Notes: generated by a model from the letters alone, not told the origin. A DNA stretch of 32,137 nucleotides from Syntrophomonadaceae bacterium (GCA_007127255.1 SKZS01000077.1:1-32137); one strand, 5' to 3'. Shown: positions 4,907-26,779, numbered from the stretch's first letter. A program made the numbers and translations.

Positions 4907-5070
4907 TCAGAACATATGTATTTTATAGATTTCTGAAGTCCTGAAATATGGTAATCAAGAAAGCAGCTCAATCAATAGCTTTAAAGGAGGTGTTTCATAA
5001 AGGACAATATAGAAGGGGTTAGCGTTAGAAAGGTTTGCTTTTTTATTACTTTAAACAGGAGGATTGTATA

Positions 5071-6189: not shown

Positions 6190-6202
6190 AACCTCTTTGA
6201 TA

Positions 6203-6243
6203 GTTAGGGCAAGGCAAATAAAGCCTTGCCCTAACCGCTTTTA
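6203..6243 (+). terminator. strong hairpin after the SBP gene (intra-operon attenuator or partial terminator)
   Basis: GTTAGGGCAAGGC (6203-6215), a 7-nt loop, then GCCTTGCCCTAAC (6223-6235), giving a perfect 13-bp stem. It is followed by CGCTTTTAG and starts 14 nt after the SBP stop, before the dctQ-like gene. Confidence 0.6.
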
Positions 6244-6268
6244 GTACTACATTTGCCAGTAAGGAGGC

Positions 6269-6796
6269 TTGTTGCAATTGAAAATAGTGAACGGCTTGCT
6301 ATTTGGTATTGATAAAATCAATGAGTTCTTTGCAAAAATCGGGGCATGGATTCAGCTTGCTCTGATTATTGTCCTTGTGATCGAGGTAACGCTGCGCTAT
6401 GTTTTCGGTATGCCTACTCTTTGGGCTTATGACATCAGCTGGATGTTAAGCAGTGTACTGATTATGTGGGCGTTAGGCTATACCTGGGCTATGAAAGGAC
6501 ATGTCAGCATTGATATTTTCTATGAAAAATTTCCTCCAAGGGTACAAGCTTTACTTAATGTTTTTTTTGCCTTAATTTTATTTTTCCCGCTGATGTATGT
6601 GATTATAGATAACATGATTCCCCACCTGGCCTATTCATGGTCCAAGGGAGAAAGAGCGATATGGAGTGTTTGGTTACCGGTAGTCTATCCGTTTAAAACC
6701 TGGGTCTTCATTGGTGTAGCGTTACTGGCCCTTCAGGGGGTCGCTGAGTTTATCAGGGATCTTAAGGTTCTAATCGTCGGAGGTGAGCGGCTATGA
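6269..6796 (+). CDS. TRAP transporter small permease (DctQ-type)
   Basis: About 172-175 aa with 4 predicted hydrophobic helices, sitting between the SBP and the large permease. AAGGAGG at 6261-6267 makes TTG 6278 (or 6272) a more likely start than 6269. The stop overlaps the next gene (6793-6796). Confidence 0.8.
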   Translation: MLQLKIVNGLLFGIDKINEFFAKIGAWIQLALIIVLVIEVTLRYVFGMPTLWAYDISWMLSSVLIMWALGYTWAMKGHVSIDIFYEKFPPRVQALLNVFFALILFFPLMYVIIDNMIPHLAYSWSKGERAIWSVWLPVVYPFKTWVFIGVALLALQGVAEFIRDLKVLIVGGERL

Positions 6797-8115
6797 GTAT
6801 TGAAATGATTACTTTTCTAATTATTGGTCTCCTGCTTACATTTATCGTTCTAGGTTACCCGCTGGCTTATGTTTTAGGTGGAGTAGCCCTCATCTTTGGC
6901 TATATTTTTATAGGCCCGCAAATCGGCAACCTATTTATGCTGCGTATTTTTACTGTAACCCAGGATTATATATTAATCGCCATACCGTTATTTATTTTTA
7001 TGGGTGTAGTAATTGAAAAATCAGGATTGGCAGAAAGACTTTATGACAGCATGTATGTGCTAATGGGCAATCTGCGCGGAGGACTGGCAGTGGCCACAGT
7101 TATAACCTGTACAATCTTTGCTGCTGCGACCGGTGTAATCGGAGCATCAGTAGTAACTATGGGGCTTTTAGCGCTGCCTTCAATGTTAAAATATAAATAT
7201 GACAAACCCCTGGCAACGGGTTCAATCTGTGCTGGTGGCACCCTGGGTATTTTAATTCCACCCAGTGTTTTAATCCTGGTCTACGGTCCCACAGCCAGTA
7301 TTTCCATCGGGCGCCTGTTTGCTGCCGCTTTTATACCGGGCATCTTGCTGGCGGTAATGTATGTCGCTTATGTCATTATCCGCTGCTATATAAATCCCAG
7401 CCTGGGACCATCCCTTCCAAAAACAGCAATCAAAGTAACCGCAAAAGAAAAGTTGATCATGTTTTTAACTTCGGTCCTCCCTGTTTCGGCTTTAATCATT
7501 GCCGTGCTCGGATCAATCTTTTTCGGCCTGGCTGCGCCGACCGAAGCGGCGGCCGTTGGGGCTTTTGCTTCCTGTCTTTTAGCGCTTGCTTACAAGCAGC
7601 TTAACTTTGCCAATTTAAGAGAAATAGTTTATCGTGCAATGAGAGTTAATGCGATGATCTTCCTTGTACTTATCATGGCCAACTTTTACACCAACGTTTT
7701 CATCCGCATTGGCGGTGGCAGGGTTATCGAAGAAATGGTACTGGGGCTGCCTTTACCGCCATGGGGCATATTGATTACTATGTGGCTAATCATTATAGTC
7801 ATGGGCATGTTTATTGACTGGATCGGTGTAATCATGCTGGCAGTACCCTTGTTTACTCCCATAGGTGCAGCACTAGGATTTGACCCGTTATGGTTTGCCA
7901 TGATGAATATCGTGGTTATGCAGGTTTCTTTCCTTTCACCACCTTTTGCTTACGCTATTTTTTATCTTAAAGGAATTGCTCCCCCCGAAGTGCGAACAAT
8001 GGATATATACCGTGGTATTGTTCCGTTTATTGTGCTGCAGCTTGTAGGGGTGTCAATTCTGGCCGCTTTTCCAAATATCATTCTGTATTTACCACGGCTA
8101 TTTGGACTGTATTAA
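6793..8115 (+). CDS. TRAP transporter large permease (DctM-type)
   Basis: 440-aa polytopic membrane protein. Its 4-nt overlap with the Q gene is the standard TRAP QM arrangement. Confidence 0.9.
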   Translation: MSIEMITFLIIGLLLTFIVLGYPLAYVLGGVALIFGYIFIGPQIGNLFMLRIFTVTQDYILIAIPLFIFMGVVIEKSGLAERLYDSMYVLMGNLRGGLAVATVITCTIFAAATGVIGASVVTMGLLALPSMLKYKYDKPLATGSICAGGTLGILIPPSVLILVYGPTASISIGRLFAAAFIPGILLAVMYVAYVIIRCYINPSLGPSLPKTAIKVTAKEKLIMFLTSVLPVSALIIAVLGSIFFGLAAPTEAAAVGAFASCLLALAYKQLNFANLREIVYRAMRVNAMIFLVLIMANFYTNVFIRIGGGRVIEEMVLGLPLPPWGILITMWLIIIVMGMFIDWIGVIMLAVPLFTPIGAALGFDPLWFAMMNIVVMQVSFLSPPFAYAIFYLKGIAPPEVRTMDIYRGIVPFIVLQLVGVSILAAFPNIILYLPRLFGLY

Positions 8116-8209
8116 TTTTTACTTGTTAGAGACGGGATTACAGGTTCGACTGTCATAATCTAAGGCAACAGAAAAAGAAAGTGAGATTGTATATTAAGGA
8201 GGACAAATT

Positions 8210-9634
8210 ATGAAAGGTTATCGCGTTATCGACTCTGCCATTCTCGAGGAACTAAAAAAGATAGTTGGTTCAGAGAATGTAATTTATGACGATCATGAAA
8301 AAATTGAACCCTACTCTCATGACGAGGTGGCAGATTTAGATTACGCTCATATGCCCGAAGTAGTAGTTAAGCCAAGAACCGCAGAGGAAATCTCCGCAAT
8401 TATGAAAATGGCTAACGAGGAAATGATTCCGGTAACTCCCAGGGGAGCCGGAAGCGGACTTTCCGGGGGAGCCGTGCCGGCCAAAGGTGGTATTCTCCTA
8501 TCAACTGAAAGGATGAATAAGGTCCTGGAGATTGACAAAAACAACCTGATTGCAGTTTTGGAGCCCGGAGTGATTACCAATGATTTCAATAACGAAGTCC
8601 AAAAAGAAGGCCTCTTCTTTGCCGGCTATCCGATGAGCCTTGAGATGTGTTTCATCGGCGGCAATGTAGCTGAAAATGCCGGTGGAGGAAGGGCAATCAA
8701 ATACGGAGTAACTGGCCGTTATATTACCGGCATGGAGGTAGTTCTTCCTACCGGAGAAATATGCACTTTTGGCGGAAAAAGAGTAAAGGATGTTACCGGT
8801 TATAACATGTGTCAGCTTTTAACCGGTTCAGAAGGTACTCTCTGTATTTTTACCAAGATATTTGTCAAGCTTTTGCCCTTACCCAAGGCAAAAATTGACA
8901 TGATGGTCCTTTTTGAGGATGCCCAGTCAGCAATCGATGCTGTTCCGCTTATCATGACCCAGATGCGTATTATCCCGACTGGCATCGAATTTATGGACAA
9001 GGTGTCCCTTGATACTACCTGCGATTTTTTGAAAGATAAGAAACGCCACGAAGATGCCGGAGCTGTATTAATAATTGAACTGGATGGCAATGATGCAGAC
9101 CAGGTGCGCCAAGAATGTCTTGATATAGGGGATCTGTGCCTGGATAACGGCGCTCTCGACGCATTTGTTGCTGAAGGTCCGGCAGACCAGGAAAAAATCT
9201 GGAAGGTTCGACGGCATGCTGCTGAAGCTTTTAAAGCGATCAGCCCTGAACAGAGCCTGGAAGATATTGTTGTTCCGGTCAGCAGTATCCCTAAATTAAT
9301 TCCTATTTTAGAAGATATTTCTAATAAACACAACGTGATTATCCCCTGCTACGGACATGCCGGTGATGGAAACATGCATGCAACCATAGTTAAAAAACCG
9401 GAAGAAAGCATGGAGAGCTGGAAGAAAACCCTGCCCGCTGCCTTAACAGACCTTTATATAGCTGTCAGAGAATTAGGTGGCACAATCAGCGGTGAACATG
9501 GCATCGGCCATAAACGCAAGCAGTTTCTGCCATTGGTTTTGGGGGAAGCTGAAATTGAAGTCATGAAAAAAATCAAGCAGGCTATGGATCCCAATAATAT
9601 CCTAAACCCGGGCAAAATATTTGACATAGACTGA
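8210..9634 (+). CDS. FAD-binding oxidase, GlcD/D-lactate dehydrogenase family (D-2-hydroxyacid dehydrogenase)
   Basis: 474 aa with an FAD_binding_4-type N-terminus (VVKPRTAEEISAIMKMANEEMIPVTPRGAGSGLSGGAVP) and a C-terminal GGTISGEHGIGHKR motif. An RBS AAGGAGG precedes the ATG. Confidence 0.85.
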   Translation: MKGYRVIDSAILEELKKIVGSENVIYDDHEKIEPYSHDEVADLDYAHMPEVVVKPRTAEEISAIMKMANEEMIPVTPRGAGSGLSGGAVPAKGGILLSTERMNKVLEIDKNNLIAVLEPGVITNDFNNEVQKEGLFFAGYPMSLEMCFIGGNVAENAGGGRAIKYGVTGRYITGMEVVLPTGEICTFGGKRVKDVTGYNMCQLLTGSEGTLCIFTKIFVKLLPLPKAKIDMMVLFEDAQSAIDAVPLIMTQMRIIPTGIEFMDKVSLDTTCDFLKDKKRHEDAGAVLIIELDGNDADQVRQECLDIGDLCLDNGALDAFVAEGPADQEKIWKVRRHAAEAFKAISPEQSLEDIVVPVSSIPKLIPILEDISNKHNVIIPCYGHAGDGNMHATIVKKPEESMESWKKTLPAALTDLYIAVRELGGTISGEHGIGHKRKQFLPLVLGEAEIEVMKKIKQAMDPNNILNPGKIFDID

Positions 9635-9686
9635 TATGTCTTTTCCCGGAGTTCTATAACCATATTGCCAGAGGAGGCTTTTAAAT

Positions 9687-10982
9687 ATGAAAATAGACCT
9701 GCTTTACGGTGACAAAACTTTCCCCTTGGAGTTGCCGGATGATCGGGTAAAATATGTACTTGAAGCAAAACCTCTGCCTGTCCCTGAGTCGGAAGAAAAG
9801 TTGATCAAAGATGCGCTGGCACGACCAATCGATTCAGCTCCCCTGTCTGAGCTGGTTAACAGGGGAGAAAGCGCCTGTATTATCGTTGGTGATATGACCC
9901 GCTCATGGGTACGCCATCATGTGTTTATTCCCCTATTACTTGATGAACTTAATCGGGGGGGCATTGCAGATAATGATATCAATATCATTTCAGCTACAGG
10001 TGATCACCGCGAACAAACCGGAGAAGAACACAAAATACTGGTAGGGGAAGAAGCATATCGCAGGGTAAAGGTAATCGACCACCGGGCTCGCAACAAAGAT
10101 GAGATGGTCTTTTTGGGCAACACCAGTTACGGCACCCCGGTTAGTATTAACAAGCAAGTGGCCGATGCAGACCGGGTTATTCTAACCGGAGGTATTGTTT
10201 ATCACTTCCTCGCCGGTTGGGGCGGGGGTAAAAAAGCTATTATTCCAGGAGTGTCATCTTACGAAACAATTATGAAAAACCACTCTCTTGCTTTCTATCC
10301 TGAAGAAGGCAGAGGACTTAACCCTGATGTCTGCGCCGGGAAAATTGATGATAATCCCTGCTGTGACGACATGGTTCAGGGCACCAGCCTGGTTGCTCCT
10401 GATTTTATGGTTAACAGTATCATCAACGAAGAAACTCACCAAATTGCCTATGTTGTAGCCGGTAATTATATCACCGCATTCAGAAAAGGGTGTGACCTGG
10501 TTACTGAACACTTCGGAGCAGATCTACCCGATCGTTCTGAACTGGTTATTGCCTCATGCGGCGGATACCCAAAAGATATAAACTTCTACCAAACTTACAA
10601 GACAATTTATAACGCCCACTTTGCTCTTGAAAAAGGTGGCACATTGCTACTGGTCAGCGAAAGTCGCGAAGGTATTGGCAGTGATGACTTTGCCTCAATT
10701 TTTACTGCTTACACGGACAATGGGCAGCGTGAAGCAGCATTGCGGCGTGAATATACTATTGGCGGGCAAATGGGTTACCACAGTGCAGTTGTGGCTGAAG
10801 ATAATGATGTTCTCGTTCTATCAGGACTTTCAGACGACCAGGTGAAGCAGATGGGCATGATCCCGATTAAAACCCTTGAAGAAGGAATGGCTTTTATTAA
10901 AAAGAAGCACGGCAGTATTCCTCCGGCGTGTCTTATGCCTCATGGCGGAAGCACAATGCCCTGCCTGACTTGTAAAGATTAA
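9687..10982 (+). CDS. larA: nickel-pincer-nucleotide dependent 2-hydroxyacid racemase/epimerase, LarA family
   Basis: 431 aa. It aligns by eye with L. plantarum LarA landmarks. GDMTR matches SDHTR, ATGDHR matches ATGFHR (His108), and VYHFLAGWGGGKKAIIPG matches ESHFFAGFSGGRKSVLPG (His174, Lys184). IMKNHS matches IMANHS (His200). An RBS GAGGAGG sits 9 nt upstream. Confidence 0.85.
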   Translation: MKIDLLYGDKTFPLELPDDRVKYVLEAKPLPVPESEEKLIKDALARPIDSAPLSELVNRGESACIIVGDMTRSWVRHHVFIPLLLDELNRGGIADNDINIISATGDHREQTGEEHKILVGEEAYRRVKVIDHRARNKDEMVFLGNTSYGTPVSINKQVADADRVILTGGIVYHFLAGWGGGKKAIIPGVSSYETIMKNHSLAFYPEEGRGLNPDVCAGKIDDNPCCDDMVQGTSLVAPDFMVNSIINEETHQIAYVVAGNYITAFRKGCDLVTEHFGADLPDRSELVIASCGGYPKDINFYQTYKTIYNAHFALEKGGTLLLVSESREGIGSDDFASIFTAYTDNGQREAALRREYTIGGQMGYHSAVVAEDNDVLVLSGLSDDQVKQMGMIPIKTLEEGMAFIKKKHGSIPPACLMPHGGSTMPCLTCKD

Positions 10983-11006
10983 TCAAATTAAGATTACACT
11001 GAAGAA

Positions 11007-11040
11007 GTTAACCTTTCAATTATCAATAGTAAAGGTTAAC
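11007..11040. repeat. perfect 10-bp inverted repeat downstream of larA (terminator-like stem without a T-tail, or a protein site)
   Basis: GTTAACCTTT (11007-11016), a 14-nt loop, then AAAGGTTAAC (11031-11040). It is directly followed by a second inverted repeat, AACACAACA (11038-11046) / TGTTGTGTT (11108-11116). Confidence 0.4.
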
Positions 11041-11225
11041 ACAACAATGATGTTTAGAAGCTAACAATTATACCAGGCAGGCTGCACTATAATATAAAAT
11101 GATTCGCTGTTGTGTTGTTATATTTACAAAAACAGACCGATAAAATTGCAAGCTTAAAGATTCAAAAAGCATTTAGGAACTTAAACATATCGGCGGCAAC
11201 TCATACACATACCTATTCATTGGTA

Positions 11226-11243
11226 TGTTATAATTAATTGACA
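11226..11243 (+). promoter_or_regulatory. possible promoter elements for the GntR-SDR operon
   Basis: There is an extended -10-like TGTTATAAT (11226-11234) and, just downstream, a TTGACA (11238-11243). They lie 55-70 nt upstream of ATG 11297. No clean -35/-10 pair could be fixed. Confidence 0.3.
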
Positions 11244-11296
11244 ATACCTTTTATTAAAATAGGTAATAATACTTTAATTCAGGAGATGAATCACAT

Positions 11297-12028
11297 ATGT
11301 TTAAGCCGATCAAAACAAAGCGGGTCTATACAGAAATCGTGGACCAAATACAGGGGCTAATAAATGAAGGAACCCTTAAGCCAGGCGATAAATTAATTTC
11401 TGAACGAGAACTGGCAGAAAAACTGGAAGTAAGCCGTGCTTCAATTCGTGAAGCATACAGTGCGCTGGAGTCAATGGGTATCCTGGAAAGCAGAGCGGGT
11501 GGAGGAACCTTCATCCGCGCTGTTTCTTCAGAAGATATAATTAAGCCTTTAGCCTTAATTTTAATGATGGACAAGGAAAGCAACTTTGACATTATGGAAG
11601 TGCGAAAAATTTTGGAAGCAGAGAGTGCCTATTTAGCTGCAGAACGGGCCTCTGAAGAAAATATTCTAAAAATGAAAGAACACCTGGAAGGGATGGAAGA
11701 AGATATTCGTGAAGGAAAGATCGGCGAGGTGTCCGATGCCAACTTCCATTTTGCCATTGCTGAATCGACCCAAAATACCATCTTTGTCCGGTTAATGAGC
11801 ACTATATCAGACCTGGTAATGCATTCAATGAAGAAAAGCCGGGAAAAGATGTATTTTAAACCCGGAAATGATGATAAGTTATTTAAACAACACACGGCAA
11901 TTTTTGAAGCCATCTCCGCCAGGGATTCCAAATTAGCCCGGAAAAAAATGTGTGAACACCTGGTCTTTGTTTGCGATGAAATTTTTTCCATAGAAAAGGA
12001 ACCAACAAAAGACAAGCTGCGGCTGTAA
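11297..12028 (+). CDS. GntR-family transcriptional regulator, FadR subfamily (FCD C-terminal domain; LldR/PdhR-like)
   Basis: 243 aa. It has an N-terminal winged HTH, VYTEIVDQIQGLINEGTLKPGDKLISERELAEKLEVSRASIREAYSALESMGIL. The C-terminal helical domain is FCD-type (DANFHFAIAEST...). Confidence 0.85.
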   Translation: MFKPIKTKRVYTEIVDQIQGLINEGTLKPGDKLISERELAEKLEVSRASIREAYSALESMGILESRAGGGTFIRAVSSEDIIKPLALILMMDKESNFDIMEVRKILEAESAYLAAERASEENILKMKEHLEGMEEDIREGKIGEVSDANFHFAIAESTQNTIFVRLMSTISDLVMHSMKKSREKMYFKPGNDDKLFKQHTAIFEAISARDSKLARKKMCEHLVFVCDEIFSIEKEPTKDKLRL

Positions 12029-12039
12029 GGAGTTTGCCT

Positions 12040-12801
12040 ATGTTAAAAGATAAGGTATGTGTTGTAACAGGTGCTGCCGGTGGAATTGGCCTCGCTACAG
12101 CAGAGATTTTTGTAAATGACGGCGCTAAGGTTATTATGGCCGATATAGCGGGAGAGACTTTGGAAAATGAGGCTAACCGGTTGGGACAAAATTTCTTAAG
12201 GACAGACTTAAGCAAGCAAAATGAATGCAAGGCCTTAATAGAATACACTCTTAAAAAACAATCAAAAGTGGATATTCTGGTTAATATTGCAGGCATCCAG
12301 ACAGTTTGCCCAATCGATGAATTTCCGGAAGATAAATGGGAAACTATGATCAGCCTAATGTTAACAGCGCCATTTCTACTAACTAAATATGCGTGGCCTT
12401 CTATGAAAGCGCAAGGCTGGGGAAGAATAATTAATTTAAATTCTATTCATGGGATGGTAGCATCCGAATACAAAGCTGCCTATGTTTCAGCCAAGCACGG
12501 CCTTGGCGGGCTGACAAAGGTAGCCGCACTTGAAGGCGCAGAATATGGCATCACTGTTAATTCAATTTGTCCGTCATATGTAAGAACTCCACTGGTCGAA
12601 AAACAAATATCCGACCAGTCTAAAGCGCATGGCATCCCCAGTGAGCAGGTTATAAGTGAAATAATGCTGCAGAAAGCAGCCATAAAAAAGATCCTGGAAC
12701 CAAAAGATGTAGGCGAATTAGTAAAATTCTTATGCTCTGATACAGCCGCCTGTATCACGGGAACTATGCTTCCTATAGACTGCGGTTGGACTGCTGCATA
12801 A
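12040..12801 (+). CDS. short-chain dehydrogenase/reductase, 3-hydroxybutyrate-dehydrogenase-like
   Basis: It has the TGAAGGIG Rossmann motif, NIAG, and Y-x3-K (YVSAKHG). The ORF-track start at 12034 is a TTG. ATG 12040 sits 7 nt after AAGGAG (12027-12032) and is preferred. It begins 12 nt after the GntR stop. Confidence 0.8.
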   Translation: MLKDKVCVVTGAAGGIGLATAEIFVNDGAKVIMADIAGETLENEANRLGQNFLRTDLSKQNECKALIEYTLKKQSKVDILVNIAGIQTVCPIDEFPEDKWETMISLMLTAPFLLTKYAWPSMKAQGWGRIINLNSIHGMVASEYKAAYVSAKHGLGGLTKVAALEGAEYGITVNSICPSYVRTPLVEKQISDQSKAHGIPSEQVISEIMLQKAAIKKILEPKDVGELVKFLCSDTAACITGTMLPIDCGWTAA

Positions 12802-15923: not shown

Positions 15924-17066
15924 TTATTCTAGTGATTTCTGTAACTCCGCCATCAGGTCTGCCGGATCCTCCAGTCCGACTGAAAGCCGGACAAGATTTG
16001 GTGTAATCCCCAGTGCCTCACGTTTCGCCTCGGGCATAGTAGCGTGGGTCATCGTATAAGGATGGCAGGCCAATGACTCTACCCCACCCAGGCTTTCCGC
16101 TACAGCAAATAGATGCAGCTTGCGGAAAAAGGAGTCCACCATGGACGGATCTTTTAATTTAAATGAGACCATGCCTCCCCACCCTCTCATTTGCTTGCCT
16201 GCCAGCTGATGGCCGGGATGTTCTTCCAGACCAGGATAGTATACCCTTTCGACCATAGGGTGAGACTGTAGCTGGTCGGCTATTTTTGCAGCACCACGTT
16301 GGTGGGCTTCCATGCGCACCTGCAGGGTTTTTATTCCACGTAAGGTAAGCCAGGCATCAAAAGGTGAAGGAACAGCCCCAACTGCATTTTGAAAGTAGCT
16401 CATCTTATTGTACAAAGGTAGGCTGGAGGTAACTACAGCTCCACCAATAAGATCGGAATGACCATTTAAATACTTGGTAGTACTATGCACTACGATATCT
16501 GCTCCCATAGCCAGGGGGTTTTGCAGGTATGGGGTGGCAAAGGTGTTATCCACCACCATGAGTGCCCCATTTTCATGCGCAAGGTCGGCTATAGATTTTA
16601 TATTGTAAATATTTAACAGAGGGTTTGTCGGGCTTTCCAGCCAGACCATTTGAGTATTTTTTGTTAAGGCACTACGAAAATCTTCCGTTTTAGAGCTATT
16701 TACATGAGTTAATTCTAGTCCCCAACGCTCGTAAACCCCGGTAAAAAGACGAAAAGTCCCGCCGTAGACTTCAGCACACGATACAAGGTGGTCTCCCTGT
16801 TTCAGCAGGTTCACCACTGCATCAGTGGCAGCTGATCCTGAAGCGAAGGCTAACCCGTATTTTGCCCCTTCCAGGGAAGCCAGACACTCTTCCAGCGCTG
16901 TCCGGGTGGGGTTTCCGGTGCGGGAGTATTCGTAACCTCTGTGCTCTCCCGGCGCTTCCTGGGTATAAGTAGAGGTGGCATATATAGGCATTATCGTCGC
17001 CCCCGTTACCGGATCTGCATTCTGGCCGGCATGAATGGCCCTTGTAGCAAATTTTTTATCATGCAT
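15924..17066 (-). CDS. cystathionine gamma-lyase/gamma-synthase family PLP enzyme (MccB/MetC-like)
   Basis: 380 aa with N-terminal ATRAIHAGQ, YSRTGNPTR and the PLP-lysine motif HSTTKYLNGHSD. It lies 14 nt downstream of the CBS-like gene. Confidence 0.9.
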   Translation of the reverse strand: MHDKKFATRAIHAGQNADPVTGATIMPIYATSTYTQEAPGEHRGYEYSRTGNPTRTALEECLASLEGAKYGLAFASGSAATDAVVNLLKQGDHLVSCAEVYGGTFRLFTGVYERWGLELTHVNSSKTEDFRSALTKNTQMVWLESPTNPLLNIYNIKSIADLAHENGALMVVDNTFATPYLQNPLAMGADIVVHSTTKYLNGHSDLIGGAVVTSSLPLYNKMSYFQNAVGAVPSPFDAWLTLRGIKTLQVRMEAHQRGAAKIADQLQSHPMVERVYYPGLEEHPGHQLAGKQMRGWGGMVSFKLKDPSMVDSFFRKLHLFAVAESLGGVESLACHPYTMTHATMPEAKREALGITPNLVRLSVGLEDPADLMAELQKSLE

Positions 17067-17080
17067 TCTTACCCCTCCTA

Positions 17081-18040
17081 TTATTTTTCTACAGTAAAAT
17101 CGTTTTCTTCCATCCAGTCATCAGAGTAGATGCTGGAAATATAGTTGCGGCCGGTATCGGGAAGCATCACTACTATCACTTTTTCTTCCTGAAAACGTGC
17201 CGCATATTTTAACGCAGCGGCAACTGCCGTTCCTGTAGATCCACCTGCCAGCAGACCCTCTTCACGGGTCAGCCGCCTGGCCATGTCAAAGGATTCCTGG
17301 TCCTTAATCCGAATCATCTCATCAACCACATCGCGATCATAGGTTTCGGGGAAGAAATCCTCACCAATACCTTCCACTTTATAGGGTTTTGGCAAATCTC
17401 CTGAGAGAATTGATCCTGCCGGATCAGCACCAACCACTACCAGGGAAGGTTTTTTTTCTTTCAAGTAACGCCCGGCCCCGGAAATGGTACCACCCGTGCC
17501 AATACCGGCTACGAATACATCCACCTGCTCATCTGTGTCTTCCCATATTTCCGGCCCTGTGGTTTGGTAATGGGTCATAGGATTAACCTGGTTGGTAAAT
17601 TGATTCGGCCGAAAGGCACCTGGTATCTCCCGGGACAATCTGTCCGCAACACCATTATAGCTTTCCGGTGAATCGGGGGGGACGTCTGTTCGGGTTATAA
17701 CCACTTCAGCCCCATATGCTTTCAGCAAATCGACCTTATCGCGGCTCATCTTGTCGGGCAGGACAAAAACACAGCGGTATCCCCGTGTGGCGGCAGCCAG
17801 CGCCAAACCCACCCCTGTATTCCCGGCAGTAGCTTCAACAATAGTACCCCCCGGTTTGAGCAGGCCTGCTCTTTCGGCCTCTTCAACCATGGTCAGACCA
17901 ATACGATCTTTTACACTACCACCGGGATTTATACTTTCCATTTTGACCAATACGATGGCCTTAATCCCTGTTGTAACCCGGTTCAGTCGGACCAGCGGTG
18001 TTCTGCCGATTAACTCTTCAACGCGTTTAAAGTAACGCAT
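17081..18040 (-). CDS. cystathionine beta-synthase-like / O-acetylserine-dependent cysteine synthase family (MccA/CysK-like, no CBS domains)
   Basis: 319 aa with the PLP-Lys motif NPGGSVKDRIG, EATAGNTGVGLA, GIGTGGTISG and a CBS-type YKVEGIGEDFFP loop. Confidence 0.85.
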   Translation of the reverse strand: MRYFKRVEELIGRTPLVRLNRVTTGIKAIVLVKMESINPGGSVKDRIGLTMVEEAERAGLLKPGGTIVEATAGNTGVGLALAAATRGYRCVFVLPDKMSRDKVDLLKAYGAEVVITRTDVPPDSPESYNGVADRLSREIPGAFRPNQFTNQVNPMTHYQTTGPEIWEDTDEQVDVFVAGIGTGGTISGAGRYLKEKKPSLVVVGADPAGSILSGDLPKPYKVEGIGEDFFPETYDRDVVDEMIRIKDQESFDMARRLTREEGLLAGGSTGTAVAAALKYAARFQEEKVIVVMLPDTGRNYISSIYSDDWMEENDFTVEK

Positions 18041-18695: not shown

Positions 18696-18920
18696 ATGTA
18701 TTATGATCCAGTATGTAAAAATACCTTAACAGAAGAACAGGTAAAAAAAACTTATACATTTGATGGAAAAACATATGAGTTTTGCTGCGATTATTGCCGC
18801 GAGAAATTTAGTGATTCTCCAGAAACCTATATTGGTAAGAACTGGTGGCAGCGATTTCTCTACAGGCTGGCAGAATCCAATGCTGAAGAGTTTAAAGGGA
18901 AAAATCCTACCTGCCACTGA
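18696..18920 (+). CDS. YHS-domain metal-binding protein
   Basis: 74 aa. YYDPVCKNTL...YTFDGKTYEFCCDYCREKFSDSPETY fits the YHS pattern (DPVC ... Y.F.G..Y.FC...C...F...PE.Y). The C-terminal tail ends in CH. A strong RBS AAAGGAGG sits 8 nt upstream. Confidence 0.75.
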   Translation: MYYDPVCKNTLTEEQVKKTYTFDGKTYEFCCDYCREKFSDSPETYIGKNWWQRFLYRLAESNAEEFKGKNPTCH

Positions 18921-19026: not shown

Positions 19027-19362
19027 TTACATAAGCCTTTTTATTACGTCCATAAGTTCTTCTATTGTGCTCTCTTCACTATCTTTACTCAGAATAGCTG
19101 TACTGACACATCCCCTGGTATGATCTTCCAGTATTAACATAGCCAGGCGAGCGAGGGCCATTCTTGAGGCAGCAATCTGATTCAACACATCAACACAATA
19201 CCTTTCTTCCTCAACCATTCGTTGTATTCCCCTAACCTGACCTTCCACCCGCTTCAAGCCATCCAAAATCTTTTTTTTGTTTTCCTGGTAACTTCCTTGA
19301 ACTTGATGGTGACATATTGCACCATTTTCTGAATGATCGTTGGTAACACTTTTTTCAGTCAT
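19027..19362 (-). CDS. csoR: CsoR-family metal-sensing transcriptional repressor (Cu(I)-type C-H-C ligand set)
   Basis: 111 aa. It contains LKRVEGQVRGIQRMVEEERYCVDVLNQIAASRMALARLAMLILEDHTRGCV, which carries the x-C-H-C fingerprint (YC ... H-x3-C). The N-terminal extension is His/Cys-rich (AICHHQ). Confidence 0.8.
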   Translation of the reverse strand: MTEKSVTNDHSENGAICHHQVQGSYQENKKKILDGLKRVEGQVRGIQRMVEEERYCVDVLNQIAASRMALARLAMLILEDHTRGCVSTAILSKDSEESTIEELMDVIKRLM

Positions 19363-19430: not shown

Positions 19431-19460
19431 ATTATAAACCCTAGGGGAGTATAGTGTCAA
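19431..19460 (-). promoter_or_regulatory. csoR promoter with an embedded CsoR box (autoregulation)
   Basis: The minus strand reads TTGACA (19460-19455), an 18-nt spacer, then TATAAT (19436-19431). The spacer and -10 region carry ATACTCCCCTAGGGTTTAT (plus-strand coordinates 19434-19452). This is related to the box at 18360-18376. Confidence 0.6.
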
Positions 19461-19536: not shown

Positions 19537-20388
19537 TTATTGGTTACCATTACCGGATGGGAGGACATCATTCATACTGCCACTACGAAATCCACCCAAA
19601 TCAAGGGTCACGTATAAAAAACCAATTCTTTTTAGTTTCAACAGTACCGTTTCCGCAACTTCCAGCAAGCGTGGCATATCTTCTTTAGGAACCTCAATCC
19701 GGGCAATTTTGCCGTGATATCTAACCCGTAACTGTTTAAAATTGAGTTCCTTTAAACTTCTTTCCGCTTTTCTGATCTGTGCAAGAATCTCCGGGGTAAT
19801 GCGGGTACCGTACGGAACTCGTGATGAAAGACAGGCCATGGACGGTTTCTCCGCTGTAGGTAGATTATAAAAACGGGAGAGTTCACGAATATCCACCTTG
19901 GTCAACTCTGCCTCCTGGAGCGGGCTGCGCACTTTTAGCTCTAAACCTGCTTTCATTCCAGGTCTGTGATCAGCCAGATCATCGTGGTTGGCGCCGTCCA
20001 AAACAAACTGGAAACCCCTTTCTCTCGCTATATTCCAAAGCTTTCCGAATAACTCTTTTTTGCAGTAATAGCATCTTTCCGGGGGGTTTTCCACGAAATG
20101 TTCATTTGCAAGTTCTTCGCTCTTGATTACTTCATATGCAACCCCAAAATCTTCTGCCAGGCGCTGCGCATCTTGAAACTCTTCTTGTGGATAGGTCTCG
20201 GACCGGGCAATTACCGCCAGGACCTTTTTTCCTAGCACTCTGGAAGCCAGGTATAGAAGAAGGGCGCTGTCTACCCCTCCCGAAAAAGCTACCAGTACAC
20301 TCTCCATCTCTCCAAGTATTTTCTGCAGGGTTTTTAGTTTTTTCCCCAGTGGACCGACTGTAATTGGTAAATGATCTATTTTGGCCAT
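19537..20388 (-). CDS. larE: LarE, the ATP-dependent (PP-loop) sulfur transferase of nickel-pincer nucleotide biosynthesis, three-cysteine type
   Basis: 283 aa with PP-loop VAFSGGVDS. It is collinear by eye with L. plantarum LarE. DGANHDDLADHRPGMKAG matches DGMIKNDENDYRPGLKAR, and ACLSSRVPYG matches SCSVSSRFPYG (the sacrificial Cys176 position). VTLDLGGFRSGSMND matches VTLDLGGFRSGRMND. Where L. plantarum has WYYAKK, this protein has CYYCKK, giving a CxxC plus C triad. Confidence 0.85.
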   Translation of the reverse strand: MAKIDHLPITVGPLGKKLKTLQKILGEMESVLVAFSGGVDSALLLYLASRVLGKKVLAVIARSETYPQEEFQDAQRLAEDFGVAYEVIKSEELANEHFVENPPERCYYCKKELFGKLWNIARERGFQFVLDGANHDDLADHRPGMKAGLELKVRSPLQEAELTKVDIRELSRFYNLPTAEKPSMACLSSRVPYGTRITPEILAQIRKAERSLKELNFKQLRVRYHGKIARIEVPKEDMPRLLEVAETVLLKLKRIGFLYVTLDLGGFRSGSMNDVLPSGNGNQ

Positions 20389-20499
20389 TCTAAATACCCT
20401 CTCCTCCCGGACTTAGGGACGTCATACCGTACCCATAACATTCTAGCCAGATGTGCTGATCTGATATTTGCCTTTCATAATGCGGTCTTTTTCACTTTA

Positions 20500-21522
20500 C
20501 TAAGTTCCTATAAATCTTGCATAAAGGTTTCGTGCTTCGGCTTCATCGCTGGTGCCGCGAATAATAGCCCTTCCATTTGGAAATAAAACTATTTCATGCT
20601 GGCCTGTTTTAAAGCTGAGGAGAAAACCGTTGAAAGAAGCATGGCCGGCCTGCTTTAAGTTAGTTTCAAGTTGTTTTAAATCTATATTCTGTTCCGATGA
20701 GGGCATAATTTGGACAGCATTTCGCCCACAGAGTACATTCGTCCATGAAAACGCTGAACCGTCAAGAAATTCATAGCGACCTTCTCCACATGCCGGACAA
20801 TCCTGACGCCGTTCAAGATCAAAGTTGTCAAATTGACGCTGCCAGACATCAAGATAAAGGAGCCCGGGTGTAGGCTCGAATCCGGTCAGCAGACGCAGGG
20901 CTTCAGCACACTGGAGCGAAGCAATCGTTCCGGTAGTCATACTGAGTACTCCTTCTGTGTCACAGTTGGGTAGTGCTCCCACCGGGGGCAGTTGGTCAAA
21001 ATAGCAACGCAGGCAAGAGGTTTGATGTGGAACAATAACCATCAACATGCCAACGGACCCCAAAACCGCGGTGTAAATCCAGGGTATGTTATTTTTAAGA
21101 CAGGCATCATTGATTAAGAAGCGGGTTTCAAGATTATCTGTGCCATCGATGACAAGATCACTGTCTTTTATTATCGTTTCTATATTTCCTGGTGATACGT
21201 CGGCAATAAGGGGTTCAATAGTTATTTCTGAATTAGCAGCAATCAACTTTTTAGCAGCAGCCATCGCCTTGGGCAGACGCTGTTCAGCATCGTATTCGTC
21301 AAAGAGGAGTTGACGCTGTAAGTTGTTTTTTTCTACAAAATCCCGGTCAACCAGTTTGAGCCTTCCAACCCCGGCCCTGCATAAATGACTGCAGCTTACC
21401 GTTCCCAGGGCGCCTAAACCAATAATTGTTACTTCACTTCCTGATATTTTAGCCTGGCCCTTTTCACCGACCGGGCGAAAGAGAATCTGCTTGGCATAAC
21501 GGCTATCTAAAAGATCTCCCAT
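20500..21522 (-). CDS. ThiF/MoeB/HesA-family E1-like adenylyltransferase (long, Bacillus ThiF-like form with a C-terminal extension)
   Basis: 340 aa with SRYAKQILF, nucleotide loop IIGLGALGT and DRDFVEKNNLQRQ. It has Cys pairs CLRC and CPAC. The ~90-aa C-terminal extension is (VLCGRNAVQI ... FPNGRAIIRGTSDEAEARNLYARFIG). Confidence 0.8.
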   Translation of the reverse strand: MGDLLDSRYAKQILFRPVGEKGQAKISGSEVTIIGLGALGTVSCSHLCRAGVGRLKLVDRDFVEKNNLQRQLLFDEYDAEQRLPKAMAAAKKLIAANSEITIEPLIADVSPGNIETIIKDSDLVIDGTDNLETRFLINDACLKNNIPWIYTAVLGSVGMLMVIVPHQTSCLRCYFDQLPPVGALPNCDTEGVLSMTTGTIASLQCAEALRLLTGFEPTPGLLYLDVWQRQFDNFDLERRQDCPACGEGRYEFLDGSAFSWTNVLCGRNAVQIMPSSEQNIDLKQLETNLKQAGHASFNGFLLSFKTGQHEIVLFPNGRAIIRGTSDEAEARNLYARFIGT

Positions 21523-21562
21523 GATAACTTTAATCTCCTATTTATCATTTGCCTTAAATTTT

Positions 21563-22717
21563 TTACCTCATTGGGGAAAACTGGCGAATCTGCTCTACCG
21601 CCTCGGCTATAACATCGATAACATATTCAATCTCTTCTGAAGTATTGTTTATCCCAAGTGAAAAACGTAGTGTCCCTCTGGCTGTGACCGGGTCAAGGCC
21701 AATAGCTGTTAATACATGAGACGGTTCATCAGACCCGGAGCTGCAAGCTGAAGCTGTCGATACGGCAATCCCTTTTGTATCCAGAGCCAGAAGCAGAGCT
21801 TCCCCCTCAAGGAAAGCGAAATTCAAGCTGGTTATATTAGGTACTCTATGCTGGAGGTGGCCGTTAATAGTTACATGATCTATACGTGAAATAATCCCGT
21901 TTTCAAGCCTGTCGCGCAGAGTTGACAAGTTGGCAGCTTCAGTATCAAGTTCATTGGTTGCAAAACGCAGGGCTGTAGCCAGGCCAACCACTCCGGGAAT
22001 ATTTTCAGTTCCGGGGCGTAAAATCTTTTCCTGGTGCCCTCCTTCAAAAAGCGGGGCAAGCTTGACGCCATCACGCTTGAAAAGAGCTCCGGTTCCCTTT
22101 GGACCGTAAATTTTATGAGCTGTGAGGGAGAGCAGGTCAACGCCTATTTCTTTAACGCTGACCGGGATCTTACCTACAGCCTGGACGGCATCAGAGTGAA
22201 CTGCTATGCCCCGCTTACCGGCAAGGGCAGCAATTTCTTTCAGAGGCTGGATCGTGCCGATTTCATTATTAGCTAACATTATACTGATCAAGATGGTATC
22301 GTGACGGATTGCTTTTCTAACTGTTTCAAGCTCAACCAGACCATATTGATCAACCGGCAGATAGGTTACTTCAAATCCCTGCTTCTCAAGTTCATGAAAA
22401 ACGTTGAGGACTGCATGGTGTTCAATGACTGAGGTAACCAGGTGTTTGCCTTGTTTGCTGTTAGCATAAGCAAAACCCTTAATAGCCAAATTATTGCTTT
22501 CCGTGCCACCACTGGTAAAATAGATTTCTTTAGGTTCAGCCTCTATGGCTGAGGCAACCTCATTGCGTGACTCTTCCAATGCACGCTTTGCCTTCTGCCC
22601 TATGGAATACAGGGTGGAGGGGTTTCCGTAAATTTCAGTATAATATGGTCGCATGGCATCAGCAACTTCAGGTAAGACCGCTGTTGTAGCGGCATTATCC
22701 AGGTAAATCTCTTTCAT
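21563..22717 (-). CDS. nifS: cysteine desulfurase, class V aminotransferase (NifS/IscS type)
   Basis: It has IYLDNAATT, the PLP-Lys motif LTAHKIYGPKG and the active-site Cys in STASACSSGS. The ORF track starts at 22723, but GGAGG (22730-22726) is only 2 nt from that ATG and 8 nt from ATG 22717. I therefore prefer 22717. Confidence 0.9.
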   Translation of the reverse strand: MKEIYLDNAATTAVLPEVADAMRPYYTEIYGNPSTLYSIGQKAKRALEESRNEVASAIEAEPKEIYFTSGGTESNNLAIKGFAYANSKQGKHLVTSVIEHHAVLNVFHELEKQGFEVTYLPVDQYGLVELETVRKAIRHDTILISIMLANNEIGTIQPLKEIAALAGKRGIAVHSDAVQAVGKIPVSVKEIGVDLLSLTAHKIYGPKGTGALFKRDGVKLAPLFEGGHQEKILRPGTENIPGVVGLATALRFATNELDTEAANLSTLRDRLENGIISRIDHVTINGHLQHRVPNITSLNFAFLEGEALLLALDTKGIAVSTASACSSGSDEPSHVLTAIGLDPVTARGTLRFSLGINNTSEEIEYVIDVIAEAVEQIRQFSPMR

Positions 22718-22851
22718 GAACATAACCTCCTGCTAACCCCTAAAAAGTTTCTCATCATTATGCCTTCACTTTCGGCAATTTCAGGCGGGCTTATTTATCT
22801 TCAATCTACCTTTTATATTTCTCGACCCTGGCTTTTGGTATTATAAGCTTA

Positions 22852-22902
22852 TTGACATAATTACTATAGTTTCAGTATACTTTACAAGGGAAAAGGTGTC
22901 AA
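22852..22902. promoter_or_regulatory. dyad-symmetric back-to-back promoter pair sharing a palindromic -10
   Basis: On the plus strand: TTGACA (22852-22857), an 18-nt spacer, TATACT (22876-22881). On the minus strand: TTGACA (22902-22897), a 17-nt spacer, TATACT (22879-22874). The two -10 hexamers overlap inside the palindrome AGTATACT (22874-22881). The minus-strand promoter drives nifS-E1-larE. The plus-strand promoter faces the 22.9-23.3 kb gene-poor region. Confidence 0.55.
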
Positions 22903-23308: not shown

Positions 23309-23683
23309 TTACTGTTTTTCTTTAAAAACCTCTTCTGCTACCCTGAAGCTGTCAATTGCTGCCGGAACACCGCAGTAAATAGCACACTGTAAAAAGACTT
23401 CCCTTATTTCCTCGGTGGTCACACCATTGTTAAGAGCTCCCCGCACATGCAGCTTCAATTCGTGGGGCCGGTTTAAAGCGGTGATCATGGCCAGGTTAAG
23501 CAGGCTGCGGGTTTTTCTTGAAAGCCCCGGCCTTTTCCAGATTTCTCCCCAGCAATACTGTGTTACAAGTTCCTGCATGGGCCGATTGAACTCAGTCATT
23601 CTGTTAATGGCATTATCCACGTACTCAGAGCCGAGCACTTCTTTACGGACGGCAAGACCTTCATCAAACTTTTTTTGATCCAT
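23309..23683 (-). CDS. carboxymuconolactone decarboxylase (CMD)/AhpD-like family protein
   Basis: 124 aa. The sequence ...ELVTQYCWGEIWKRPGLSRKTRSLLNLAMITALNRPHELKLHVRGALNNGVTTEEIREVFLQCAIYCGVPAA... is the typical gamma-CMD family pattern. Confidence 0.8.
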   Translation of the reverse strand: MDQKKFDEGLAVRKEVLGSEYVDNAINRMTEFNRPMQELVTQYCWGEIWKRPGLSRKTRSLLNLAMITALNRPHELKLHVRGALNNGVTTEEIREVFLQCAIYCGVPAAIDSFRVAEEVFKEKQ

Positions 23684-23905: not shown

Positions 23906-23939
23906 CTTAATTAGCTAATCTTTGGAGAGGGTGTTTACT

Positions 23940-25607
23940 GTGTCATCTAAAGTTGTTATTGTCGGTGGAGTAGCCGGCGGGGCTTCTACTGCCGCCCGTC
24001 TGCGTCGCCTGAGTGAAGAAGCGGAAATCGTTTTGCTGGAACGCGGCGAATATATTTCTTACGCCAACTGCGGCCTTCCCTATTACATCGGAGGAACAAT
24101 CGAAGAAAGAGACAGCCTTTTTGTCATGACTCCGGAAAAGTTTAAGGCATGGCTGAATATTGATGTGCGAACCTTGAATGAAGCTGTTAGCATTGACCGC
24201 GAAAATAAGGAAATCGAGGTGTTGGACAAAACCACCAATCAGAAATACCGGGAAAGCTATGATTGCCTGGTTCTTTCACCGGGCGCCGAGCCGCTGCGCC
24301 CTCCCCTGCCCGGGATCAACAGCAAAGGCATTTACAGCCTGAGAACAGTCAATGATGCTGACCGTATTTTTGATCACTTGAAAGAAAAATGCCCGCAAAA
24401 AGCTGTTGTAGTAGGGGCCGGTTATATTGGCCTGGAGATGGCCGAAAACCTGTACCACCGCGGCCTGGAGGTCACCGTTGTGGAACTCGCTCCCCAGGTT
24501 CTGCCGCCTGTTGACGCTGATATGGCAGCACTGGTTCAACAATATCTGCGCGCCAGGGGTGTACAGCTTCATTTAGGCAGTGGTGTTAAACAGTTCCATC
24601 AAACTGAAAAAGGCGGTCTTGAAGTTGAACTAAACAACGGCGAACTGTTGGAATCCGACCTTATAATCCTTTCAATTGGTGTAAAACCGGAAACGAAGCT
24701 GGCCCAGGAGGCCGGATTAGCGGTCGAAAGGGGAATAAAGGTTAACGAACAGATGCAGACGAGCGACCCTTCAATATATGCTTTAGGTGATGCTGTTGAG
24801 GTTATCCACCTGATCACCGGTAAACCGGCAGTAATTCCCCTGGCCGGACCTGCCAATAAGCAGGGGCGTATTGTCGCAAACAACATCGCCGGAAAATTTG
24901 ATACTTACAAAGGAACCCAGGGCACCTCCGTTTTAAAAATATTTGATATGACTGTTGCTACAACGGGCGCAAATGAGCGAATTCTAAATGATGCAGGCTT
25001 AGAATACCAGAGCATTATTATTCATCCCAATGACCATGCCGGTTATTATCCCGGGGCCTCTCCCCTGTCGCTCAAGCTGCTTTTCAGCCCCGAAGGAACT
25101 ATACTGGGTGCCCAGGCTCTGGGTTACGGAGGAGTGGAAAAACGGATTGACGTGCTTGCTACCGCCTTGCGCGCAAGCAGCAGCATCTATGATCTGCAGG
25201 AGCTGGAGCTGGCCTATGCTCCGCCATACTCTTCGGCAAAGGATCCGGTCAATATGGCCGGCTTTGTTGCCGGCAACAAGCTGCAAAATGGTTATGAAAC
25301 CATCGAAGCGCTTGAATTGCTGGAATCAGTTTCGGATAATATGCAAATAATTGATGTGCGTGAAGCAGAAGAATTTGAACTCGGCAATATCCCGGGCAGT
25401 ATAAATATCCCCCTGGGACAACTGCGCGAGCAACTGGAAATACTTGATCGCAAAAAGGAAGCAGTCACCTACTGCAGTGTCGGCCTGCGCTCTTACCTGG
25501 CATCGCGCATTCTTATCCTAAACGGTTTTAAAAAAGTGCGTAACTTAAATGGCGGCTACCATATATTCCAGGCTTTACAAAGTGAAAATAACAACTCAAA
25601 AACATAA
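23940..25607 (+). CDS. CoA-disulfide reductase / CoA-persulfide reductase-type pyridine nucleotide-disulfide oxidoreductase with a C-terminal rhodanese domain
   Basis: It has VVIVGGVAGGASTAARLRR (FAD), the redox Cys in SYANCGLPYY and the NAD(P) motif VVGAGYIGLEMAE. The C-terminal rhodanese domain (IIDVREAEEFELGNIPGSINIPL) carries the active Cys in YCSVGLRS. The ORF-track frame opens at TTG 23922. GTG 23940, 9 nt after GGAGAGG, gives the canonical MSSKVVIVGG start. Confidence 0.85.
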   Translation: MSSKVVIVGGVAGGASTAARLRRLSEEAEIVLLERGEYISYANCGLPYYIGGTIEERDSLFVMTPEKFKAWLNIDVRTLNEAVSIDRENKEIEVLDKTTNQKYRESYDCLVLSPGAEPLRPPLPGINSKGIYSLRTVNDADRIFDHLKEKCPQKAVVVGAGYIGLEMAENLYHRGLEVTVVELAPQVLPPVDADMAALVQQYLRARGVQLHLGSGVKQFHQTEKGGLEVELNNGELLESDLIILSIGVKPETKLAQEAGLAVERGIKVNEQMQTSDPSIYALGDAVEVIHLITGKPAVIPLAGPANKQGRIVANNIAGKFDTYKGTQGTSVLKIFDMTVATTGANERILNDAGLEYQSIIIHPNDHAGYYPGASPLSLKLLFSPEGTILGAQALGYGGVEKRIDVLATALRASSSIYDLQELELAYAPPYSSAKDPVNMAGFVAGNKLQNGYETIEALELLESVSDNMQIIDVREAEEFELGNIPGSINIPLGQLREQLEILDRKKEAVTYCSVGLRSYLASRILILNGFKKVRNLNGGYHIFQALQSENNNSKT

Positions 25608-25757: not shown

Positions 25758-26294
25758 ATGGGCACAGTGAAAAATACCGCTTTCATTCTTTTAATTGTTG
25801 TCTTTTTTGTTTTAGTGGTGACATTTTATCTTGGTGGGACTCCCCTTGTTGCAGAGGGTTTGACCCGGGCAGGAGAAACCGCGATGCGGGCCTCCCTGCT
25901 TATTATCACTGCTTTTATTGTTATTGGCCAACTGCAGGTAATGATTTCTTCCGAGATGATAAAAAAATGGCTGGATAAGTATTCTGGCAATAAAAGTTTA
26001 GTTTACAGTTCCCTGGCAGGCGGCCTTTTCCCCGGAGGACCATATATATTCTACCCTTTTTTAGCAGGATTTAAGGGCAAGGGCATTCCTTTCTATATCA
26101 TTTTTTCTTTCGTTATTGGCAAGCAAAACTATGACTTTACCCGCCTGCCCCTGGAAATCAGCCTGACCACCCCCGGCTTAGCGATCTTAAGAAATATTAT
26201 TACTCTTCCTTTCCCCTTTATAATGGGCTTGATCGTCAGACGTTTTTTCCCAAAAGGTTTTGGGGAGAAGTATAGGGAACAGGGTGAACAGTAA
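25758..26294 (+). CDS. membrane permease half A (UPF0718/DUF318-like 'two-component permease' subunit)
   Basis: 178 aa with 4-5 hydrophobic segments. It resembles the paired ~170-aa permease subunits annotated as a putative two-component membrane permease complex in streptococci (from memory). GTG 25767 is 10 nt from GGAGAGG and may be the true start. The stop overlaps the next start in TAATG. Confidence 0.55.
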   Translation: MGTVKNTAFILLIVVFFVLVVTFYLGGTPLVAEGLTRAGETAMRASLLIITAFIVIGQLQVMISSEMIKKWLDKYSGNKSLVYSSLAGGLFPGGPYIFYPFLAGFKGKGIPFYIIFSFVIGKQNYDFTRLPLEISLTTPGLAILRNIITLPFPFIMGLIVRRFFPKGFGEKYREQGEQ

Positions 26295-26779
26295 TGGCGA
26301 TGCCGACCATAGTATTTTTGATCCTGGCTGTTATTCTTTTTTTGATAAACCTGAGGAGCGGCAAACACTGGGAAGGTTTAAGGAGCGCGGTTAAACAATT
26401 TATTGTTGTCCTGCCGGTTATCCTGCTGGCCATGTTGCTGGCAGGATTGCTCGAAATTCTGATCCCCGAAGAATTCATTAAGCGCTGGTTGTCCCAGGAA
26501 GCCGGGTTGACCGGAATTATACTTGGCACTTTTGGCGGCATGCTTATGGCTTTCGGCCCTTATGCATCTTATCCAATTATAGCTACTATTTATCATGCCG
26601 GTGCCGGCCTTGGTACGACCATAGCGCTGCTGGCAGGATGGACTTACCTCAGCCTGTCAAGAATACCCTTTGAAAGCAGTTTTTTAGGCTTGAGATTCAC
26701 TTTCTTACGGATGACGCTGGGGTTAATATTTACTATCCTTGCCGGAGTTATCGCTCATTTGATTGAACTGCTTTTTTAA
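26294..26779 (+). CDS. membrane permease half B (partner of 25758-26294)
   Basis: 161 aa with 4-5 hydrophobic segments. Its ATG overlaps the upstream TAA by 1 nt (translational coupling). Confidence 0.55.
   Translation: MAMPTIVFLILAVILFLINLRSGKHWEGLRSAVKQFIVVLPVILLAMLLAGLLEILIPEEFIKRWLSQEAGLTGIILGTFGGMLMAFGPYASYPIIATIYHAGAGLGTTIALLAGWTYLSLSRIPFESSFLGLRFTFLRMTLGLIFTILAGVIAHLIELLF

Follow-up and report, generated by a model that had tools for sequence, protein, structure and literature searches.

A NifS/IscS-type cysteine desulfurase (NifS) probably serves two independent consumers of its sulfur, a ThiF/MoeB-like E1 adenylyltransferase (E1) and the nickel-pincer nucleotide (NPN) synthesis protein LarE, in parallel rather than in series. 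The three proteins are encoded in one operon within a 32,137-nt stretch of DNA from a Syntrophomonadaceae bacterium (GCA_007127255.1, SKZS01000077.1:1-32137; the whole stretch is referred to as the window). Directly observed are the identity of the genes, their motifs, the layout of the operon and two gene pairs that recur independently of each other, each in many lineages, i.e., NifS-E1 and LarE-NifS. Since these pairs recur separately, while the complete triad occurs essentially once, NifS appears to be a sulfur hub that collects client genes variously; those seen around it encode IscU, MnmA, E1, TtuA, ThiI-like proteins and LarE. The locus is most likely a new combination of known parts and not a new sulfur relay.

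Coordinates of the relevant features refer to the whole window, minus-strand genes being read from high to low numbers:

22874..22902, minus strand: sigma-70-type promoter TTGACA-17-TATACT (11 of 12 positions matched), ~150 nt upstream of nifS
21563..22723, minus strand: nifS, class I (NifS/IscS-type) pyridoxal phosphate-dependent cysteine desulfurase (PF00266, TIGR03402, NF002806)
20500..21522, minus strand: ThiF/MoeB/TtuC-type E1 adenylyltransferase, 340 aa (PF00899, PRK12475, AlphaFold2 model)
20503..20760, minus strand: C-terminal domain of the E1, residues ~255-340 (conservation and domain model)
19537..20388, minus strand: larE, three-Cys [4Fe-4S]-type PP-loop ATPase, 283 aa (TIGR00268, SGGVDS, C106/C109/C186)
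9687..10982, plus strand: LarA homologue, LarAH10-like (NF052525; identical contigs show the domains Lar_N and LarA_C)

According to translation of the open reading frames (ORFs), nifS, E1 and larE are arranged head-to-tail and co-directionally on the minus strand (22723..19537), separated by gaps of 40 nt (nifS-E1) and 111 nt (E1-larE), with a ribosome-binding site ahead of larE and no terminator-like site between the three genes. The initial annotation, made from the sequence alone, had described three co-directional genes behind one strong promoter, which is confirmed by the promoter match, the short gaps and the lack of a terminator. Likewise, all motifs quoted there were found in the translations, namely AHKIYGPKG and SACSSGS (NifS), GLGALGT, CLRC and CPAC (E1) as well as SGGVDS, CYYC, ACLSSRVPYG and VTLDLGGFRSGSMND (LarE). 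On identical contigs the start of nifS is called at the second ATG (22717), yielding a protein of 384 aa; this is likely the true start. A leader of ~150 nt (22724-22873, minus strand) lies between promoter and nifS; an Rfam scan of the window, including this leader, returned no matches.

The assignment of the first gene product as NifS/IscS-type cysteine desulfurase is borne out by PF00266 (E-value 1e-89), by the IscS subfamily model NF002806 (353.9 bits, cutoff 304) and by the presence of the HK motif (AHKIYGPKG) and the active-site Cys loop (SACSSGS); the cutoff of the NifS equivalog TIGR03402 is narrowly missed (525.3 versus 530.75 bits). The third gene product was proposed to be a LarE with a three-Cys triad, and this also holds: residues 17-273 align with positions 2-259 of the 259-position profile TIGR00268 (343.1 bits, cutoff 150), the PP-loop SGGVDS at residues 36-41 is invariant in 62 homologues, and so are C106, C109 and C186 in all 62 distinct aligned sequences.

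For the LarE-NifS pair, 80 LarE-centred metagenome loci (49-75 % identity to the window LarE) were analyzed, with neighbours named by Pfam. LarB (AIRC) was the neighbour in 22 of these loci, NifS in 20, LarC (Ni_insertion), IscU and Rrf2 in 16 each, MnmA in 15 and NadA in 10; an E1 was found in none. Context was counted within 4 kb for the 40 loci extending at least 2.5 kb to both sides of larE: 10 contained NifS only, 9 LarB/LarC only, 4 both and 17 neither, again without any E1. Altogether, NifS lies within 4 kb of larE in 14/40 loci representing 13 distinct LarE sequences, and LarB or LarC in 13/40. Recurrence at this scale renders a neighbourhood of LarE and NifS by chance unlikely. The four loci with both kinds of neighbours are near-identical (LarB-LarE-Rrf2-CysK-NifS-IscU). 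A typical NifS-linked layout is LarE-Rrf2-NifS-IscU-MnmA-NadA, a cluster recurring in loci L094-L097, L125, L129 and L155 (LarE at ~8001 in part of them), the LarE proteins of which form a clade of their own.

The biochemistry of such a pair has been described in vitro. The three-Cys LarE of Thermotoga maritima binds a [4Fe-4S] cluster and acts catalytically with L-cysteine and Escherichia coli IscS (Chatterjee et al. 2022, PMC9283937), the Cys triad being the mark of [4Fe-4S]-dependent LarE (PMC9283937). Sulfane sulfur is taken straight from the IscS persulfide, probably via a [4Fe-5S] species and without a carrier protein (PMC9283937; restated in PMC11796402). The window LarE shares with this system the PP-loop, the triad composed of CxxC plus a further Cys, and a cysteine desulfurase as sulfur source. 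It differs in that the desulfurase genes of T. maritima are located far from larE (PMC9283937), whereas nifS and larE of the window belong to one predicted operon with the E1 gene between them. From the 14/40 synteny together with the IscS-LarE transfer in vitro (PMC9283937), it appears plausible that NifS and LarE are functionally linked, as suggested in the initial annotation. The notion of a "previously undescribed" sulfur line does not hold, since the route from NifS to LarE is published (PMC9283937). No report on LarE with ThiF, on LarE-desulfurase synteny or on the combination of ThiF, cysteine desulfurase and CymR was found in a search that did not extend to subscription journals.

The NifS-E1 pair is conserved independently of LarE. 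Matches listed from a profile scan of a genome collection all share at most 56 % identity with the window E1, and closer relatives were inspected singly. In all ten distinct inspected relatives with 56-81 % E1 identity (L001, L002, L003, L005, L085, L087, L088, L089, L090, L177), nifS is located directly upstream of the E1 gene, the NifS proteins being 52-81 % identical to that of the window. Their commonest layout is Rrf2-CysK-NifS-E1, conserved in Bacillota and Chloroflexota (L001, L003, L005, L085, L087 and L088, mostly with the E1 at ~8001-9020); the Rrf2-CysK part is lost from the window copy of the operon. In L085, a gene for a hexapeptide transferase with an FeS_assembly_P match and a Cys_Met_Meta_PP gene following the E1 are additionally present. 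None of the ten relatives has larE adjoining the NifS-E1 pair, unrelated or opposite-strand genes following the E1 instead. More distant members (45-50 % identity) are often stand-alone genes. The family retains its full length including the C-terminal extension, and Bacillota, Chloroflexota, Desulfobacterota, Acidobacteriota and Planctomycetota are among the matches listed.

Some relatives encode a carrier in cis. In L002, the E1 is followed by a ThiS of 96 aa with a GG end (PF02597, E-value 3e-8). In L021 and L030 (Desulfobacterota metagenome-assembled genomes, MAGs, of Syntrophobacter and Desulfarculales), NifS, MnmA, E1, a ThiS-like protein of 63-66 aa with a GG end and a TtuA with TtuA_LIM_N and PP-loop domains are encoded in one run (7729-12161 and 7729-12190, respectively), i.e., a TtuABC-like set joined to a NifS-MnmA pair. 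Judged by these cis-encoded carriers, members of the E1 family act like ThiF/MoeB/TtuC-type E1 enzymes that activate a carrier, and NifS is the neighbour they prefer. The orphan status originally ascribed to the E1 consequently applies to the window, where no carrier is encoded nearby, but not to the family, since ThiS, or a ThiS-like protein plus TtuA, is encoded directly downstream in relatives.

Annotation of the second gene product as a 340-aa ThiF/MoeB E1-like adenylyltransferase agrees with its match to PF00899 (E-value 3e-70; nucleotide-binding motif GLGALGT, GxGxxG) and with its structural matches. The best matches of the AlphaFold2 model (predicted local distance difference test score, pLDDT, of 92) are ThiF and MoeB of E. 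coli, onto which residues 7-247 superpose with target template modelling (TM) scores of 0.89-0.93. Shared with these enzymes (PDB 1zud and 1jw9) are the adenylation domain (TM 0.9), the zinc-binding CxxC pairs and the crossover-loop Cys. Both CxxC pairs (C170/C173 and C242/C245) are invariant among 64 aligned E1 family members, as are Cys187 in the crossover loop, aligned with the Cys that E. coli ThiF has in its NCRTAGV loop, and Cys265 (codon 20728-20730), which belongs to an LCGR motif within the C-terminal domain. The best NCBIfam match is PRK12475 ("MoeB/ThiF family"; 349 bits, cutoff 510), a long form which covers the protein over its full length (profile positions 2-338 of 338) including the C-terminal extension, and which we take to be a Bacillus type; the "Bacillus-ThiF-like" extension noted initially is supported by this full-length match. 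Different from ThiF, MoeB and PRK12475, the window E1 has neither thiS, thiG, moaD nor moaE next to it at the window locus, its conserved neighbour being nifS, and it scores below the equivalog cutoffs (see below).

Residues 250-340 of the E1 are covered by no solved structure and no Pfam family. Modelled alone (pLDDT 81), the C-terminal domain has the topology beta-beta-alpha-beta4-alpha. In Foldseek, the top matches without exception are single repeats of the TATA-box-binding protein (TBP), followed by the N-terminal domain of RNase HIII (E-value 0.04-0.3, query TM 0.54-0.60). Because of these top matches, the extension, a highly conserved domain, is predicted to adopt a TBP-like fold. A rhodanese was rejected as candidate for this domain, since the model matches TBP repeats, and so was a fused beta-grasp carrier, given the TBP-like model and a protein terminus of IGT rather than GG. 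The NifS-E1 pair and the TBP-like domain with its invariant Cys are uncharacterised and may interest workers on thiocarboxylate formation in anaerobes.

Carriers and further lar genes were searched for around the operon. All six frames of the 32-kb window contain no GG-ended stop-to-stop frame of at least 40 aa, in agreement with the initial statement that no ThiS/MoaD-like ORF accompanies the E1. Three carrier queries from related loci gave no tblastn match to a ThiS/TtuB-like carrier, and no Pfam domains were detected in small intergenic ORFs. The genes larB, larC, thiG and moaE are missing from the window, as stated initially for larB and larC. The 10 kb beyond either window end, read on 103-kb and 90-kb contigs of the same species (~52 kb including the window), contain none of these four either, nor thiS or moaD. 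These flanks carry tryptophan/folate-type genes on one side and fatty-acid/purine-type genes on the other.

Encoded 8.5 kb away from larE, the LarA homologue belongs to a separate cluster on the plus strand, consistent with the different operon described originally. It scores 493 bits with the LarAH10 model NF052525 (cutoff 540) and is likely a client of the cofactor made by the window LarE. Genes for a tripartite ATP-independent periplasmic (TRAP) transporter (DctPQM), a GlcD-like flavin adenine dinucleotide-dependent oxidase, a GntR/LldR-type regulator and a 3-hydroxybutyrate-dehydrogenase-like short-chain dehydrogenase/reductase surround it. Judged by gene content, this locus (5035-12801) looks like a module for 2-hydroxyacid uptake and racemisation.

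Taken together, we infer that this particular NifS serves both the E1 and LarE, with the carriers of the E1 encoded elsewhere in the genome. One desulfurase would be co-expressed with two separate users of its persulfide sulfur. On one branch, the E1 would adenylate GG-terminated carriers of the ThiS/MoaD/TtuB type, and sulfur from NifS would turn the carrier adenylates into thiocarboxylates that serve thiamine, molybdopterin and/or tRNA thiolation. On the other branch, LarE would hold a [4Fe-4S] cluster, adenylate the mononucleotide of pyridinium-3,5-biscarboxylic acid (P2CMN) by its own PP-loop and receive a non-core sulfide straight from the persulfide on NifS; the resulting mononucleotide of pyridinium-3,5-bisthiocarboxylic acid (P2TMN) would be the precursor from which the nickel-pincer cofactor for the LarA homologue is made.

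Several points weigh against such a parallel supply. Co-transcription of nifS, E1 and larE as well as all three activities are predictions from the DNA. In a neighbour-joining tree of 62 distinct LarE proteins, NifS-linked and LarB/LarC-linked sequences form one clade each, and the window LarE is placed as sister to the former, outside the LarB/LarC-linked clade. Moreover, the E1 remains below every equivalog cutoff, scoring 226.8 bits with ThiF (TIGR02356, cutoff 275.25) and 137-209 bits with the MoeB models TIGR02355, NF006444 and NF004281 (cutoffs 266-449). By PF00899 it is a member of the ThiF/MoeB superfamily without assignment to one exact role. Because no carrier gene for the E1 occurs across the ~52 kb, its substrates in this organism are assumed rather than seen. 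Similarly, only the LarA homologue points to an NPN pathway here, because larB and larC were not located in the same region.

A fortuitous adjacency, in which a recent rearrangement placed larE behind nifS-E1 and LarE obtains its sulfur from any desulfurase of the cell, is rather unlikely. The nifS-E1-larE junction is indeed seen only in contigs with identical E1, i.e., to one species (an ENA contig and two NCBI MAGs). In a relative with 80 % E1 identity, the pair is followed by the gene for an ATP-binding cassette (ABC) transporter binding protein, and opposite-strand genes follow in those with 74-79 %. In addition, the two closest relatives of LarE (75 and 61 % identity) are encoded by single genes in unrelated contexts. 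However, the repeated proximity of NifS-type genes to larE (14/40 loci, 13 distinct LarEs), in some cases with larB as well, argues against coincidence, as do the short gap ahead of larE, its ribosome-binding site and the lack of a terminator.

The possibility, raised in the initial annotation, that LarE is a paralogue acting on another substrate than P2CMN (for instance a different carboxylate or a tRNA base) and partnering NifS in the manner of MnmA is not favoured and regarded as improbable. It would conform with the separate clade of NifS-linked LarEs, accompanied by IscU, MnmA and NadA rather than LarB/LarC, with the sister position of the window LarE to this clade and with the lack of larB and larC in ~52 kb. 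However, of the 66 positions with at least 95 % conservation among LarB/LarC-linked LarEs, the window LarE retains 59, and zero alignment positions are conserved differently between NifS-linked and LarB/LarC-linked proteins. Since no position separates the two context groups, the sequences give no indication that the substrate has changed, and judged by its sequence the protein looks like a working LarE. Models of tRNA thiolases yield ~25 bits or less (TtuA model 22.6 bits, cutoff 450), in contrast to the 343 bits with TIGR00268. Furthermore, LarB, LarE and NifS are encoded in a single cluster in L119-L123, and the LarA homologue of the window requires a supply of NPN.

A serial relay would have NifS load the E1, or a carrier adenylated by it, with the thiocarboxylate or persulfide donating sulfur in vivo to the [4Fe-4S] LarE. 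Precedent is provided by TtuA, which possesses a comparable cluster and receives sulfur from the thiocarboxylate of TtuB, made by the E1 TtuC with cysteine desulfurases (PMC6225789); in LarE as in TtuA, the [4Fe-4S] cluster is bound by three Cys and one iron site is left open (PMC6225789, PMC9283937). The promoter common to all three genes fits this idea, as do the only two further cases of larE near an E1 besides the window species: L047 has the order LarE-NifS-MnmA-E1-radical S-adenosylmethionine (SAM)-ThiI-like, and in L005, the most distant of the ten close relatives, larE is located 3.7 kb downstream of the E1, past ABC-transporter genes. However, L047 represents a general sulfur hub, since MnmA, radical-SAM and ThiI-like genes are included. 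The lack of a carrier gene in ~52 kb and the ability of LarE to adenylate by itself and to accept sulfur straight from IscS in vitro (PMC9283937) likewise speak against the relay. Considering also that larE adjoins the NifS-E1 pair in none of the ten close relatives and that the E1 occurs in none of the 80 LarE-centred loci, the originally proposed participation of the E1 in a line feeding LarE is very unlikely. An E1 step that is obligatory between NifS and the [4Fe-4S] LarE, via a carrier encoded elsewhere or Cys265 of the TBP-like domain, is highly improbable; if true, LarE would receive its sulfur in a third way, by protein thiocarboxylate or persulfide as for TtuA/TtuB.

The same comparison shows how far the likeness to TtuA/TtuB/TtuC of Thermus extends (PMC6225789). 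The logic of E1, cysteine desulfurase and [4Fe-4S] PP-loop thiolase is shared, and E1 relatives do occur in the NifS-MnmA-E1-ThiS-like-TtuA clusters of L021 and L030. The window, in contrast, contains neither a TtuB-like carrier nor TtuA, and its LarE is not a TtuA.

The parallel supply of E1 and LarE by NifS also resembles the pairs YrvO-MnmA and NifZ-ThiI of Bacillus subtilis, which we take to be dedicated desulfurase-acceptor pairs of Bacillota. As presumably in those pairs, often preceded by an Rrf2/CymR-type regulator with cysK, a class I desulfurase is encoded beside a PP-loop client. In the window, however, the acceptors are LarE and the E1 rather than tRNA thiolases, and Rrf2 and CysK are lacking.

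If NifS indeed supplies LarE directly, the locus would lend natural genomic support to the recharging of [4Fe-4S] LarE by a cysteine desulfurase known from in vitro studies, and the finding that larE adjoins NifS-type genes in numerous uncultured lineages would offer a physiological partner for heterologous NPN reconstitution. The addition of iscS to NPN expression systems has already been suggested (PMC11796402). The apparently orphan E1, in turn, is no evidence of a new relay.

Further genes are located on either side of the operon. Downstream of larE, a CsoR-family repressor with a C-H-C fingerprint is encoded (19027-19362, minus strand), and divergently from it a protein of 74 aa that combines a YHS domain with an LDCC motif (18696-18920, plus strand). 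The CsoR-like gene represents a separate transcription unit, because it has its own promoter (TTGACA-18-TATAAT, 19431-19460, minus strand) matching 12 of 12 positions. Its candidacy as operon member or nickel sensor of NPN synthesis was rejected in view of this perfect promoter, the C-H-C fingerprint, which we assume to be typical of copper sensors, and the metal-binding YHS/LDCC neighbour. Both genes probably form a small copper-sensing module bearing no relation to the nifS operon.

Located 1.5 kb downstream of the operon (15924-18040, minus strand) are tandem genes for PALP and Cys_Met_Meta_PP enzymes, arranged like a transsulfuration pair; a major facilitator superfamily transporter gene comes after them. 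On the opposite side, a CMD-family protein (23309-23683, minus strand) is encoded upstream of a CoA-disulfide reductase that carries a fused rhodanese domain (23922-25607, plus strand), after which come two ArsP_1-type permease genes of half size (25758-26779, plus strand). These CMD, CoA-disulfide reductase-rhodanese and ArsP_1 genes may constitute a module for handling persulfide or sulfur next to the nifS operon.

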